Below, one piece after another: positions 16,080-20,876 of a DNA stretch of 45,862 nucleotides. How positions within the stretch are numbered: position 1 is the stretch's first letter; each line of letters opens with the position of its first letter. This DNA comes from Patescibacteria group bacterium (GTDB taxonomy: Bacteria > Patescibacteriota > Microgenomatia > Woykebacterales > RBG-16-39-9b). The position numbers and the translations under genes are program-made. The notes beneath the pieces were generated by a model. That model ran no database searches and was not told the origin of the DNA. It was given only the letters and a program-made list of their open reading frames with translations. The stretch covers positions 1-45,862 of the forward strand of contig JANWIZ010000036.1 in assembly GCA_025449635.1 (NCBI GenBank), written 5' to 3'.

Positions 16080-17003
16080 TTATAAATCTTTATTTCCGCT
16101 GTGAAAAGCTTTATGAACATCTTTTAGATGCTTATTGGTTATATGGGTGTAAATCTGAGTTGTCGAAATATTGGCATGACCTAACATTTCCTGAACGCTA
16201 CGAATATCAGCTCCGTTAATTAACAAATCAGTTGCAAAAGAATGCCTTAAAGTGTGTGGGGAGGCCTTGATTGGGATCTGAGCTTTGCGAACATATTTGT
16301 CTAAAACCCTTTCGACCGATCGCACTGATAAACGCATTTTTTCTCCGTTTTTACTGGGATCCTCTTTACCTGAATACCGAATGAAAAGTGGGTTATAGCG
16401 ATCTTTTCGCTGCGAAAAGTAACGATCAATCCACTCTGCTGCTGTATCAGAGATAAAAACAACTCGTTCCTTTCCTCCTTTACCGACGATTCCAAACTCA
16501 CGCCTTTCAAGATTGATTTTGTCGCGGTTTATTTTCGTCAATTCACTCACTCGCAAACCAGTTGAAAATAAGGTTTCCAGTATTGCTTTATCTCGCAAAC
16601 CGTCAATCTTAGATATATCTGGAGCAGAAAGTAGGCGGGAAAGTTGATCGTTGTCCAAAACTTTAATCGGTCTGGGATCTTGATCTCCAAGTTCGATTTT
16701 CTCAGGAGCGAGGGTTTCGATGTCATTTTTAGCCAGATAACGCAAAAAAGCTCGCAATGCAATCACAAAGTAGTTTTGGGTAACTTTTTTCAAAGACAGG
16801 CCAGTTTTTTCATCAACATAACGCGCTAGGTAAACACGGTACTTTCTAACCAGATCTTGTTTTATTTCCTTGGGATCTATGTCACCAGCAAAACCCAAAA
16901 ATCGCTGTAGATAATGATGGTAGTTACGAATTGTCAGCTGCGAAGCGTTTTTCTCAACTTCGAGATGTTCGAGAAAATCAGTGATGAGTTTGGACAGAGT
17001 CAT
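16080..17003 (-). CDS. XerC/XerD-family tyrosine recombinase
   Basis: N-terminal SAM-like domain, TGLRVSEL, GKGGKER, HTLRHSFAT, LGH..STTQIYTH; promoter TTGCTT-17-TAAGAT ends 6 nt before the ATG. Confidence 0.93.
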   Translation of the reverse strand: MTLSKLITDFLEHLEVEKNASQLTIRNYHHYLQRFLGFAGDIDPKEIKQDLVRKYRVYLARYVDEKTGLSLKKVTQNYFVIALRAFLRYLAKNDIETLAPEKIELGDQDPRPIKVLDNDQLSRLLSAPDISKIDGLRDKAILETLFSTGLRVSELTKINRDKINLERREFGIVGKGGKERVVFISDTAAEWIDRYFSQRKDRYNPLFIRYSGKEDPSKNGEKMRLSVRSVERVLDKYVRKAQIPIKASPHTLRHSFATDLLINGADIRSVQEMLGHANISTTQIYTHITNKHLKDVHKAFHSGNKDL

Positions 17004-17063: not shown

Positions 17064-17110
17064 CAAAAGGGAAGATCGCGATGGTCACTGTTAGGTGGTC
17101 GCGATCTTTT
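17064..17110 (-). terminator. Intrinsic terminator of the zinc-finger gene
   Basis: AAGATCGCGA...TCGCGATCTT inverted repeat followed by CCCTTTTG on the - strand. Confidence 0.6.
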
Positions 17111-17363
17111 GGGTTTTGCCGCAAACTGGACAAGTGTTGTAACCTTCTCCCTCTGGAAATGGTCCGCCACAGTCTGGGCAACGCTTTTCGGATGGGGGAG
17201 TCCAGGGCAACCGCTGGGTTTTAACCTTTGGTCTTACTGTCGACTCCACCTCACTGCAGTCGTGATCTTCGATGTGTTCCTTACAGAACCGTCGATCACA
17301 CTTGCTACAGTATTGATCAGAGCGGTAAGGAAGATCCTTATCGCACTTAGCACATTCGTACAA
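17091..17363 (-). CDS. Small double zinc-finger protein (AN1-like finger plus C4 zinc ribbon)
   Basis: CAKC-x11-CSKC-x4-CKEH-x3-HDC, then CPDC...CPVC; SD AAGGAG before a TTG start; own terminator. Confidence 0.75.
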   Translation of the reverse strand: MYECAKCDKDLPYRSDQYCSKCDRRFCKEHIEDHDCSEVESTVRPKVKTQRLPWTPPSEKRCPDCGGPFPEGEGYNTCPVCGKTQKIATT

Positions 17364-17506: not shown

Positions 17507-18598
17507 ATGGCGAGAAAGTTGCGACTTTCTGTTTCTGGTATGAAGACTTATTTGACTTGTGCCCGTCGATACTTCTACTACCGACATCCAGATATTCCCA
17601 ATCATACAGATTACCCAAGACTTCTAGGCATTGCTGTTCACAAGCACATAGCTCAGCTTTATCGACCAACTAAAGATCCAAGACCGTTTTACTATCGCAG
17701 TGAGCAGTCTTACAGGGGAGCGTGGTTCAATCGCTGGAAAAGAGAATTGGACGAAGCAGTTGAAAGTGAGCGTCTGCTGGCTCGAACTACTGAGTTAGAT
17801 GATGAGTTTGGACGAATAGGGGCAATCTGCATCGATAAGTATTGGGAAACAAATATTACTCTGTCACGACCCTTGCAAGTCGAGCAAAGATTTGAACATT
17901 CTTTCAACCCAACTCTTAGCTTGATTGGTGTAATGGATCAAGTCCGTACAGTTCCAATAAAGTATATCGAAAAGCACCGACCGGAACTAATAACTAACGG
18001 CCAACTTCACCCTGACTATGACCCAGTTGCGATTGTTGATCTCAAAACCAATCAGTATGATTTTGATACAGAACGGCTAAAGGATCCAACCGAATCTGAA
18101 AAGATGCGGTCGCAATACAATCTTCACGAAGATTTGCAGGCAACGGCTTACACCTTTCTTTATCAACAAGCGACAGGGAAAAAACCGATCGGGTTTATCT
18201 GGTATCACCTACGAAGCGGTTCAACTTTTTTCACTTTTCGTGATGAAAGTGACTTTTTGAACTTGTTCTTGGTAATTGATCACGTGGTGGACAACCTGCA
18301 AGCTCAGTCTTTTCCAAAGAATTCGACTGACAACAACTGTTTCCACTGTGACTTTGTTCGTGAATGCTGGGAAAAGAATATTTTTCCAATCTCAGCGGCA
18401 GAAAAATTGTCAGGAGAACTTGTTGGCGCAGATTTTATTCCAAATCTTATCGAGGTTGATCCAGTTATACAGAAACGAATGAAACTCAAAATCCCCCGAA
18501 TAGTCCGCCCAGAACCTGAAACACCTAGCAGTAAAGTTTCAGTCTTACGTAACCTTCCCTGGAGAGAGGAAAGCAGTACTTTAGTAACAGCCGAGTAA
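17507..18598 (+). CDS. PD-(D/E)XK nuclease, RecB/AddB/Cas4-like, with a predicted 4Fe-4S site
   Basis: LSVS..TYLTC, GIAVH, E..F, GVMD, IVDLKT, QATAY, C-terminal CFHCDFVREC; SD AAGGAGG. Confidence 0.88.
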   Translation: MARKLRLSVSGMKTYLTCARRYFYYRHPDIPNHTDYPRLLGIAVHKHIAQLYRPTKDPRPFYYRSEQSYRGAWFNRWKRELDEAVESERLLARTTELDDEFGRIGAICIDKYWETNITLSRPLQVEQRFEHSFNPTLSLIGVMDQVRTVPIKYIEKHRPELITNGQLHPDYDPVAIVDLKTNQYDFDTERLKDPTESEKMRSQYNLHEDLQATAYTFLYQQATGKKPIGFIWYHLRSGSTFFTFRDESDFLNLFLVIDHVVDNLQAQSFPKNSTDNNCFHCDFVRECWEKNIFPISAAEKLSGELVGADFIPNLIEVDPVIQKRMKLKIPRIVRPEPETPSSKVSVLRNLPWREESSTLVTAE

Positions 18599-18621
18599 AT
18601 AACATCCTCGGCTTTTTCTTT
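18589..18621 (+). terminator. Intrinsic terminator
   Basis: AGCCGAG...CTCGGCT followed by TTTTCTTT. Confidence 0.7.
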
Positions 18622-18658
18622 GCAAAAAAAGTACTCCGTTTGTATAATCGCTGCACCA

Positions 18659-19228
18659 ATGTCAATTTTTAATTATTTGCTCAACCGCAACCTTGCTCAT
18701 GTTCGCCGCTTTAACAATCGCCCGATGACATTCGGTGAGTCAGTTGCCGAACACTCCTACTACGTAGCTCACTTTGTCCAATTGATCTGCTTCCTTCTGG
18801 AAAAAAAGAAAATAAAAATAGATTCAAAAAAAACGATTGCTATGGCTTTGATTCACGACAGCGAGGAAGGTTTTTCTGGTGATATCCTCAACCCTTTTAA
18901 ACATTTTAATAAAAAAATCGCCGACGCTATTCACGAGGTTAACAAAGAAACAATTCATTTGATGTTTGAGGATTTACCAAAAGACATTTCCGGTAACTTT
19001 ATTGGCTTGTGGCAGGAAGAGCAAAAACGAGAATCGATTGAAAGCCAAGTAGTCAAAGTGGCTGATAGTTTGTCTTTGATTTCAAAATGTTATGAAGAAA
19101 TTGAAGTGGGCAACCATTTTTTTCATGAAATTTACAAAAGAGAGCTTAAAAATCTCAAGAATCTCGATTATTCGTGGTGGAAAAAAATAAAATCCCAAAT
19201 CCTTAACAAAGCAGAGACCGTAATTTAA
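18659..19228 (+). CDS. HD-domain 5'-deoxynucleotidase (YfbR-like)
   Basis: LAHVRRF, ESVAEHSY, ALIHDSEE..GDI, VKVAD; promoter TTGCAA-17-TATAAT (18620-18648) places the start at ATG 18659. Confidence 0.88.
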   Translation: MSIFNYLLNRNLAHVRRFNNRPMTFGESVAEHSYYVAHFVQLICFLLEKKKIKIDSKKTIAMALIHDSEEGFSGDILNPFKHFNKKIADAIHEVNKETIHLMFEDLPKDISGNFIGLWQEEQKRESIESQVVKVADSLSLISKCYEEIEVGNHFFHEIYKRELKNLKNLDYSWWKKIKSQILNKAETVI

Positions 19229-19284: not shown

Positions 19285-19313
19285 TTGACAAAATCCTCTT
19301 CTCGGAGTAATAT
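19285..19313 (+). promoter_or_regulatory. Sigma70 promoter for candidate ncRNA-1
   Basis: TTGACA (19285-90), 17 bp, TAATAT (19308-13); predicted TSS ~19320 coincides with the first base of the first helix. Confidence 0.8.
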
Positions 19314-19319
19314 GCTCGA

Positions 19320-19653
19320 GCACGTTTGATCTCGCAGGCAAATGATCAACACTAACAACTGGACGGGGAAGTCCTGCACAGGGAGAGATCGACATGACGT
19401 GTGACGCTGGCGGTGGAAGTGGCTGACCAACGCGGGTGAAGGGAAGTGAAAGCTTTCACCGCCAGCACCTTATGCCGGACTGCGAGGAAGCGCGCGAAGA
19501 GCGACTGAGACATTATCCCCCTCATGTTCTCGCAGCCCGGCACCAACTTGATAATTTCAATTGGGGAGGGGTGTTAGCGGTAGAAGACCAAAGTCATGGA
19601 AAACTGGGAAAGCTCATGACGATGGAGTACTCTTCTACCGCTTTATTTTTTTT
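19320..19653 (+). ncRNA. Candidate large structured ncRNA-1 (~330 nt, family unknown)
   Basis: Helices 19320-33/19385-402, 19406-20/19452-66 (15 bp), 19473-88/19527-42, 19576-87/19631-42 (12 bp), then a U-tract; G-U pairs on + only; no credible long ORF. Confidence 0.75.
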
Positions 19654-20821
19654 CAAGCAGCATAAGAGACGCTGGAATTACAGCGCTTTTGCCAAAACGT
19701 GCTTTCAGTTGATCGATTCGTTTTTCCAAACCCAATCTTTTTTCCCGAACTTCGTCAAATAGTGACGGTTGCACTGTTTCTCCAAACTGAGTCAGGCCGA
19801 TGCCTACCAAACGCAGTGGGGTAGAGCTATCCCACAACTCTTTTAACAAGATTTCCCCAAGATCATAAATTTCCTTAGTGATGTTTGTCGGTGTTTCCAA
19901 AACCCGCTGTCGACTGACAAACCGAAAATCTTTATACCGAATTGTCACATGAACTGTCCGACCAAAATACCCATGTTCTCGAGCTTCTTGCCCAACACTT
20001 TCGGTAAGTTTTCGTAGCATCGCTAGGATGAAAGCCTCGTCCGGATTGTCTTTATAAAAAGTTTCACTACGAGAAATAGATTTCACCTCAACTCGAGGAC
20101 TAAACCAAACATTGTCCACACCATTGGCAGCTTCCCAAAGATTGATGGCAAACTTGCCCCAAGCTTTGATTTTTTCATAATCAACTCTTGCCAACTCTCC
20201 CAATGTTCTGACTCCAAGACGCTGAAAATACTCTTCCATCTTCCGTCCAATACCAGGTAAATCACGCAGCGGTAGGGGAGCGAGAAAAGCTTTTTCTGTT
20301 CCCACAGGCACGTAAGTAAAACCATCCGGCTTGCGGAAGTCACTAGCAACTTTGGCAGCCACTTTGGTCGCAGCCAAACCGATCGAAGCGGTAATACCAA
20401 TTTCATTTTTAATGTCAGAGCGAATTTTCTCAGCTACGATTTTTAAGTCTGGGTAAAGAATTTCAGTGTTAGAAAAATCCAAGAAGGCTTCGTCAATGCC
20501 AACTTGCTCAACTCTAGGTGCGTAACGAGCAGCAATCTCCATCACTGCCTCTGAAGCTTCGATATACTCCGCAAAGTGCCCTCCAACAACGACTGCAGAG
20601 GGACAAAGTCTCAAGGCTTGATAAACTGGCATTCCGCTTTTACAACCAAAAGCTCTGGCTTCATAAGAAGCAGTTGCGATCACACCTCGGGGAACATTTT
20701 TCCCTTGAGGATTGACTCCACCAACCAAAACTGGTTTACCTTTCAACGTTGGGTCAAGCTTGATTTCAACAGCTGCAAAAAAACAGTCCATATCCAAATG
20801 CATCCAAGAAGAACGTAACAT
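19643..20821 (-). CDS. dinB: DNA polymerase IV (Y family)
   Basis: HLDMDCFFAAVE, ASYEARAFG, GIDEAFLD, AKVASDFRKPDG, LRLVGIG; ATG at 20821 follows a TTGACA/TATTAT promoter. Confidence 0.95.
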   Translation of the reverse strand: MLRSSWMHLDMDCFFAAVEIKLDPTLKGKPVLVGGVNPQGKNVPRGVIATASYEARAFGCKSGMPVYQALRLCPSAVVVGGHFAEYIEASEAVMEIAARYAPRVEQVGIDEAFLDFSNTEILYPDLKIVAEKIRSDIKNEIGITASIGLAATKVAAKVASDFRKPDGFTYVPVGTEKAFLAPLPLRDLPGIGRKMEEYFQRLGVRTLGELARVDYEKIKAWGKFAINLWEAANGVDNVWFSPRVEVKSISRSETFYKDNPDEAFILAMLRKLTESVGQEAREHGYFGRTVHVTIRYKDFRFVSRQRVLETPTNITKEIYDLGEILLKELWDSSTPLRLVGIGLTQFGETVQPSLFDEVREKRLGLEKRIDQLKARFGKSAVIPASLMLLEKK

Positions 20822-20833
20822 ACTATATAATAG

Positions 20834-20849
20834 CCGAAAGTTAACCGAA
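20834..20849 (-). promoter_or_regulatory. Direct-repeat operator TTCGG-N6-TTCGG in the dinB promoter (putative LexA/SOS box)
   Basis: - strand TTCGG TTAACT TTCGG between -35 TTGACA (20857-52) and -10 TATTAT (20832-27). Confidence 0.65.
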
Positions 20850-20876
20850 GATGTCAATTGGGACAAACTGTATCAG

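Follow-up and report, generated by a model that had tools for sequence, protein, structure and literature searches.

Orphan GC-rich structured RNAs have been found in AT-rich genomes by the GC content and length of intergenic regions, and the large ornate RNAs OLE, raiA, ROOL and GOLLD, all of them in Rfam, were recognised as families through broad conservation and through covariation. Among smaller regulators, RsaE/RoxS of Gram-positive bacteria are conserved C-rich-loop sRNAs of ~100 nt with several UCCC motifs, and in excludon-type arrangements a long mRNA or UTR usually serves as the antisense partner. Here we describe a locus in a member of the Patescibacteria that shares something with each of these and belongs to none of the families in Rfam.

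The window, by which we mean the whole stretch of 45,862 nucleotides analysed, is one contig (C36) of a genome of 0.76 Mb (760,548 bp in 46 contigs, 83% complete; G000 below) from a bacterial family whose genomes span 0.6–1.1 Mb. Between a yfbR-like gene and the gene for DNA polymerase IV it contains what is probably a real, separately transcribed, structured RNA gene of ~330 nt, judging from its predicted signals and fold. The features of the locus are as follows.

18620..19228, plus strand: yfbR-like HD-domain 5′-deoxynucleotidase gene, upstream of the RNA gene
19285..19313, plus strand: predicted sigma-70-type promoter (TTGACA at 19285-19290, 17-nt spacer, TAATAT at 19308-19313), matching at 10 of 12 positions
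19320-19653, plus strand: predicted RNA gene (334 nt), tail-to-tail with dinB
19320..19402, plus strand: Domain 1, with a closing helix of 7+7 bp (GCACGUU/GACGUGU and UGAUCUC/GAGAUCG; pair probabilities 0.86-0.97)
19345-19358, plus strand: exposed CA-rich single strand of Domain 1, AUCAACACUAACAA (unpaired probability >0.7)
19359-19381, plus strand: small hairpin with loop GAAGU, inside the closing helix of Domain 1
19406..19466, plus strand: Domain 2, a 15-bp helix (19406-19420/19452-19466; mean pair probability 0.96)
19473..19542, plus strand: Domain 3, a 6+9-bp helix (UGCCGG/CCGGCA and CUGCGAGGA/UUCUCGCAG; probabilities 0.94-0.96) around two small hairpins
19510-19520, plus strand: exposed C-rich apical loop of Domain 3, ACAUUAUCCCC, unpaired in the partition function
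19543..19564, plus strand: Domain 4, a 4+4-bp hairpin (CCAA-UUGA/UCAA-UUGG, loop UAAUU; probabilities 0.94-0.98)
19565..19575, plus strand: G-rich linker, GGAGGGGUGUU, by duplex energy a candidate partner of the C-rich loop of Domain 3
19576..19653, plus strand: Domain 5, a predicted compound intrinsic terminator (12-bp perfect stem, inner 7-bp hairpin, UUA-U8; pair probability 0.99)
19576-19587/19631-19642, plus strand: stem of Domain 5, AGCGGUAGAAGA/UCUUCUACCGCU, a perfect 12 bp as read from the sequence
19643..20866, minus strand: dinB, DNA polymerase IV of the Y-family (Pfam IMS, IMS_C and IMS_HHH), convergent with the RNA gene

The promoter is near consensus, as the original prediction had it, and lies 7 nt upstream of the first helix of the RNA, with transcription presumably starting at ~19319-19321. 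Sites of the form TTGACA-N16-18-TANNNT are rare in this genome, with only 59 on both strands of the 0.76 Mb, and the RNA promoter is among them; the genome's RNase P RNA gene, too, is equipped with a comparable promoter and with a hairpin-U terminator. Directly after Domain 5 stand TTA and T8 (19643-19653), TTA being the complement of the dinB stop codon, and the last 11 nt of the RNA gene overlap the end of dinB such that the U-run covers the last codon and the stop, which bears out the terminal hairpin that had been proposed at this position. On the other strand, none of the five minus-strand hairpins read from the sequence downstream of the dinB stop is followed by a U-run, and no hairpin terminator is present in the sequence between the HD-domain gene and the RNA promoter. 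Elsewhere in the window, a GC-richer gap (17091-17363, minus strand) between an integrase-like gene (16080-17003) and a PD-(D/E)XK nuclease gene (17507-18598) contains a 90-codon cysteine-rich ORF that looks zinc-finger-like, and is not an RNA gene.

The plus strand of the region folds with a predicted energy of -126.8 kcal/mol (z -4.69), and none of 100 dinucleotide shuffles folds as well. The minus strand reaches -115.5 kcal/mol (z -4.06), such that the plus strand is better by 11 kcal/mol, and 10 of the 101 predicted pairs are G-U pairs, corresponding to C-A mismatches on the opposite strand. The partition function assigns the main helices mean pair probabilities of 0.86-0.99, the fold resolves into five independent domains, and both the 5′ and the 3′ end of the RNA are unpaired. 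All five sets of helices described earlier from the letters alone are present where they had been placed; instead of the inner GCAGG/CCTGC pairing in Domain 1, the energy model prefers CUG/CAG together with CGGG/CCUG. The helix of Domain 2 consists of 13 Watson-Crick and 2 G-U pairs and ends in a purine-rich irregular tip, GGGUGAAGGGAAGUGAAAG. A pseudoknot between the loop at 19510-20 and the segment at 19563-74 would form a duplex of -14.7 kcal/mol, with p=0.146 in comparison with shuffled linkers of equal composition, and a kissing pair between the loops of Domains 3 and 4 (AUUAUC/GAUAAU) is likewise not above chance (p=0.054).

The region has a GC content of 52.4%, in contrast to 38.3% for the genome. 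Among its purine motifs, the four copies of GGAAG that the original prediction counted are confirmed and exceed expectation (0.57 expected, p=0.002), as do the seven copies of GAAG (2.0 expected, p ~0.002), whereas GGA, at 11 copies and 7.5 expected, is not significantly enriched (p=0.09), and only ~3-4 of the 11 lie in loops or linkers by our own reading of the predicted structure. A 14-nt motif, CUGG(A)CGGNGGAAGU, is present twice, on the 5′ sides of hairpins. There is little to suggest a protein product. The longest stop-free frame in the region has 75 codons; the small frames (a 10-codon frame following GGGAGAG, and frames of 108, 64, 52 and 50 codons) all lie within helices and have no Pfam match above noise; and a Pfam search with the four ORFs that overlap the region likewise returned nothing above noise, its sole listing being SspP (E=0.17, 12.9 bits, where the cut-off is 25 bits). 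With a promoter, an intrinsic terminator, no coding frame and a stable fold, the predicted gene has the general marks of a stand-alone bacterial sRNA gene, and the original view of it as a stand-alone, multi-domain structured RNA gene holds at the level of prediction.

The RNA does not correspond to a described class. A scan with Rfam 15 (4227 models, including RNase P, tmRNA, SRP, 6S, OLE, raiA, ROOL, GOLLD, HEARO and ribozymes) found no family at gathering score anywhere in the window, and at E<=10 the segment 19150-19750 yields only MIR533 on the minus strand (16 bits, E=1.8), which is noise. Three purine-rich stretches resemble conserved regions of RNase P RNA by eye, a likeness that the models do not support, and the genome has its own RNase P RNA on another contig (G000:C39:9266-9642; 84.7 bits, E 9e-27, full model length). 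For tmRNA, ARAGORN has no match in the window and the tmRNA model finds none in this assembly, which is 83% complete; each of the 16 relatives encodes a canonical tmRNA, scoring above the cut-off (92-157 bits), at a locus away from dinB, and the unpaired ends of the RNA speak against this assignment as well. A 6S RNA (~180 nt, a rod with a central bubble) is not supported either, there being no model match and the unpaired 5′ and 3′ ends being unlike a 6S-like rod. The comparison with a CsrB-type sponge made in the original prediction is not supported: GGA is not significantly enriched, few of its copies are in loops, and CsrA (PF02599) has no match in the genome, which at 83% completeness does not prove its absence.

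An SRP RNA can be set aside for a broader reason. Across the 17 genomes of the family (G000-G016) there is no match to the small or to the large SRP RNA model, the Ffh M domain is likewise found in none of the 17, and the SRP-type GTPase domain of Ffh and FtsY and the NCBIfam ffh model are both lacking from the five genomes searched with them, four of which are rated 100% complete and one of which is a single contig. No SRP RNA is therefore expected here, because Ffh, the GTPase domain and the SRP RNA are all missing from the family. In controls the protein families were found in 14 of 14 cases, and the two SRP RNA models in 12 of 14 and 7 of 14; SecE and NusG are present in G011, one of the relatives. 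The whole bacterial family thus seems to be without a signal recognition particle, and our literature search found no report of SRP loss in Patescibacteria.

The genome contains a second orphan RNA gene, predicted in the same way, on another contig (G000:C15:570-916, plus strand; locus L034:570-916). It is ~345 nt long, with a TTGACA-17-TATAAT promoter and a hairpin-U6 terminator, and its fold has a z of -3.6. It has no match in Rfam and no BLAST match in the 21 genomes of the order.

Searches for homologues of the dinB-proximal RNA returned little beyond the RNA itself. BLASTN in 41 genomes (40 relatives and its own) finds only itself, and in the 21 genomes of the order only chance matches of 15-29 nt, with the region present in a single copy. 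Phage and plasmid collections contain no match, and scans that used dinB as the entry point identified no closer relative in a genome collection and, in metagenomes, only a contig like that of relative G003. A covariance model built from the single sequence of 19320-19545 (226 nt of the RNA; model R2) has a best match at E=0.093, on the wrong strand, among 20 syntenic or related loci searched with filters off, and among 151 genomes of the class it finds only the genome of the window. As a positive control, the same BLAST finds the RNase P RNA of this genome in 5 of 5 relatives, with 75-77% identity over nearly the full length in the two closest. The RNA would thus either be confined to its genus or be evolving far faster than RNase P RNA. 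We found no paper on such RNAs in the candidate phyla radiation/Patescibacteria.

The position next to dinB is nevertheless one in which structured RNAs recur, even though their sequences differ. Orthologues of dinB (49-81% identity) are present in 14 of the 16 relatives, and we compared 15 orthologous loci, including its own, in the same orientation, leaving out a paralogue with 27% identity (L025). In six of the 15 a GC-rich (52-56%) non-coding unit lies tail-to-tail with dinB. Each of these units has a hairpin-U terminator and either one or two sigma-70 promoters, and its distance from dinB varies between an overlap of 11 nt and a gap of no more than ~50 nt; counting G003, a predicted structured-RNA gene is convergent with dinB in seven of 15. 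The contents of this slot in the individual genomes are listed here.

Genome of the window: unit beside dinB, 334 nt
G011 (L017): unit beside dinB, 301 nt
G004: unit beside dinB, 407 nt
G002: unit beside dinB, 507 nt
G008: unit beside dinB, 597 nt
G007: unit beside dinB, 992 nt
G003: structured RNA 1.8 kb from dinB, beyond an inserted IS200-like transposase
G012 (L018) and G015 (L023): small minus-strand ORF of ~115-120 codons and low GC between the HD-domain gene and dinB
G010 and G006: only ~65-120 nt between the HD-domain gene and dinB
G009: speH-like gene and IS200-like transposase with REP-like palindromes
G016, G001 and G013: unrelated coding sequence

Eight of the 15 loci are thus without such an RNA, four having a short gap or a small ORF and the rest unrelated genes, and therefore the RNA is not needed for dinB. 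In G004 and G007 the RNA is beside dinB although the HD-domain gene was not found within the 1.5 kb examined. No Rfam family matches the dinB loci of the relatives at E<=0.1. The IS200-like, REP-associated tyrosine transposases in the slot, with flanking palindromes of the GTGTCAGACAC type, are present in G009 (L010), G003 (L011) and the metagenome contig (L026), and the speH-like S-adenosylmethionine decarboxylase gene of G009 is itself GC-rich (55-62%) and probably foreign; both the transposase and the speH-like names come from reading the translated sequence.

The units beside dinB are not versions of one sequence. In pairwise local alignments our RNA has z values of -1.1 to 1.5 with the five syntenic RNAs, and neither it nor the G011 RNA resembles any of the syntenic units (z -1.1 to 2.5); the G011 RNA is itself an orphan, unique in the 21 genomes of the order. 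The units of G007, G004 and G008, in contrast, have ~100 nt in common at the 5′ end (z 3.2-12.9), with the G002 unit aligning more weakly (z 2.0-4.2 with two of the three). These belong to what we call family A, a structured, non-coding RNA defined here that is ~350-1190 nt long, has 53-56% GC, often has tandem sigma-70 promoters, and ends in an intrinsic terminator. Since G011 has a family A RNA upstream of secE-nusG plus a separate orphan RNA beside dinB, at least three unrelated types of structured RNA, with no detectable sequence similarity, appear to occupy the dinB tail: our RNA, the G011 RNA and family A.

The 5′ part of family A includes a conserved strand, UUGAAAGUUGAGAGAAA, and a long hairpin (alignment A1, model R1), in which 11 of 21 predicted pairs have compensatory double changes among four sequences. 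By eye there is also a second long-range helix of the CCCAGCGG/CCGCUGGG type, followed by GGGAAC. At E<=0.01, model R1 detects family A in 10 of the family's 17 genomes. Training sequences account for four of these, and five others (G003, G006, G010, G011 and G013) look convincing on inspection; weak matches in G015 and at a second site in G011 look like mRNA leaders. Outside the family there is one weak match, in one of the 151 class genomes sampled, and family A thus appears to be essentially confined to this bacterial family. It has no match in Rfam. Its loci are L013 (G007), L020 (G004), L016 (G008), L015 (G002), L041 (G003), L042 (G006), L043 (G010), L044 (G011) and L045 (G013), and it lies tail-to-tail with dinB in G002, G004, G007 and G008, behind the insertion in G003, and away from dinB in G006, G010, G011 and G013. 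In G006 a tRNA-Pro(UGG) gene (L042, 1123-1198, minus strand) directly follows the family A RNA within the same GC-rich promoter-to-terminator unit, which suggests that the two are co-transcribed. Our RNA is like family A in its slot, its orientation relative to dinB, its high GC, its sigma-70 promoter, its intrinsic terminator and its non-coding character, but it lacks the UUGAAAGUUGAGAGAAA strand, the compensated long hairpin and the tandem promoters of family A. Model R1 has no match in the genome of the window, nor within the RNA itself with filters off, and an nhmmer profile has none either.

As to what the RNA does, the reading that we favour, tentatively, is one of cis-antisense or convergent control of dinB as its principal role. 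Its transcription would begin at a sigma-70-type promoter and stop at a compound intrinsic terminator, both belonging to the RNA gene itself, and the dinB transcript would run antisense through the whole RNA gene because dinB is without an intrinsic terminator, unless a Rho-dependent stop intervenes. The 3′ end of the dinB message would then be the point at which the RNA and its strong convergent transcription take effect, either by transcriptional collision or by formation of a long RNA-RNA duplex that is cut by a double-strand RNase, such that the level of the error-prone polymerase is set by the RNA. In favor of a link with dinB, structured RNAs unrelated to one another recur at this position, oriented alike, in seven of 15 loci, two of them (G004 and G007) with no HD-domain gene found within 1.5 kb; against it are the eight loci without an RNA, the family A members located elsewhere, and the use of the slot by transposases and foreign genes, and the space between the convergent genes may simply tolerate insertions.

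Next in likelihood, close behind and likewise tentative, is that the RNA is a stable trans-acting molecule, either a protein scaffold or a regulator that base-pairs through the C-rich loop at 19510-20 and the CA-rich strand at 19345-58, with the proximity of dinB being incidental. These two segments are robustly unpaired while all else is predicted to be locked in helices, the loop includes UCCCCCU, which is anti-Shine-Dalgarno-like, GAAG and GGAAG are enriched, the 14-nt motif is repeated on the 5′ sides of hairpins, and the second orphan RNA gene is of the same style and unlinked to dinB. A target search with both exposed strands, however, gave 10-11-nt complementary matches only at chance level, the best of them inside a coding region; CsrA, a potential partner protein, was not found in the incomplete genome; no conservation points to a functional motif; and the C-rich loop might be hidden by pairing with the G-rich linker, though that pairing is not above chance. 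We regard it as improbable that the region has no RNA function of its own and is instead a structured 3′ region, common to the yfbR-like and dinB genes, that acts as terminator or insulator or contributes mRNA-stabilising hairpins, or that it is decayed foreign DNA of higher GC that folds by chance. The lack of a terminator between the HD-domain gene and the region would fit, as would the genus-specific sequence, the folding of both strands, and the transposase, REP-like palindromes and speH-like gene that occupy the slot in relatives. But the near-consensus promoter is placed exactly at the 5′ edge of the region, 330 nt of structure are dispensable in relatives whose two genes lie only 65-120 nt apart, a single-copy region is not a MITE or REP, the translated frames have no protein-family match above noise, and five well-defined helices with a z of -4.7 are not what decayed coding DNA would be likely to give.

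Least probable is that the RNA represents a strongly diverged version of an established class, whether 6S, SRP RNA, tmRNA, an RNase P paralogue, a CsrB-type sponge or family A. In favor of this, the tmRNA, SRP RNA and 6S models have no match in this genome, some of the purine-rich stretches look by eye like motifs of RNase P and SRP RNA, and in four or five relatives the slot of the RNA is taken by family A. Set against this, the 4227 Rfam models give only the 16-bit microRNA noise at E<=10, RNase P RNA is accounted for on another contig and tmRNA lies elsewhere in all 16 relatives, the SRP components are missing from the family, the unpaired ends do not make a 6S-like rod, CsrA was not found, and neither the model nor the profile of family A matches.

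Ultra-small bacterial genomes keep little non-coding DNA, and a GC-rich RNA gene of this size, with five domains and a strong predicted promoter, is therefore costly and probably used. Were the control of dinB that we favour functional, mutagenic DNA synthesis would be governed in a simple way at the RNA level, in organisms with few classical regulators. A broader and speculative version, which we consider unlikely, is that in this SRP-less, small-genome family the dinB tail is a dedicated site for fast-evolving structured RNA genes, of at least three unrelated types, convergent with the gene for the error-prone polymerase, and that selection acts on structure and convergent transcription rather than on sequence, amounting to an RNA brake on translesion synthesis, or else that the RNA is the core of a novel ribonucleoprotein. 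Even without a link to dinB, the locus illustrates a fast turnover of structured RNA genes in these lineages, and its study has yielded a new conserved RNA, family A, with covariation support. For the RNA itself, the predicted features warrant the description of a new and so far single-genus structured non-coding RNA gene, and nothing stronger.

Among known systems, the RNA is like the CsrB/RsmZ sponges in being stand-alone, a few hundred nucleotides long, and built as a series of stem-loops carrying purine-rich motifs that include GGA, but it differs in having long helices of 12-15 bp rather than many short hairpins, and few GGA in apical loops. With RsaE/RoxS it shares a C-run that is exposed in an apical loop and might base-pair with G-rich ribosome-binding sites, whereas it has a single C-rich loop in 330 nt and a target search at chance level. 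Like RNAs of the OLE, raiA, ROOL and GOLLD type it forms a GC-rich intergenic island (52% compared with 38%) with many stable helices, but unlike them it is known from a single genus and does not match these families. Excludon-type arrangements likewise have convergent units with overlapping transcripts, an overlap predicted here from the sequence, with the 3′ end of the RNA extending over the dinB stop; the difference is that at this locus the partner is a compact structured RNA of five domains that brings a terminator of its own.
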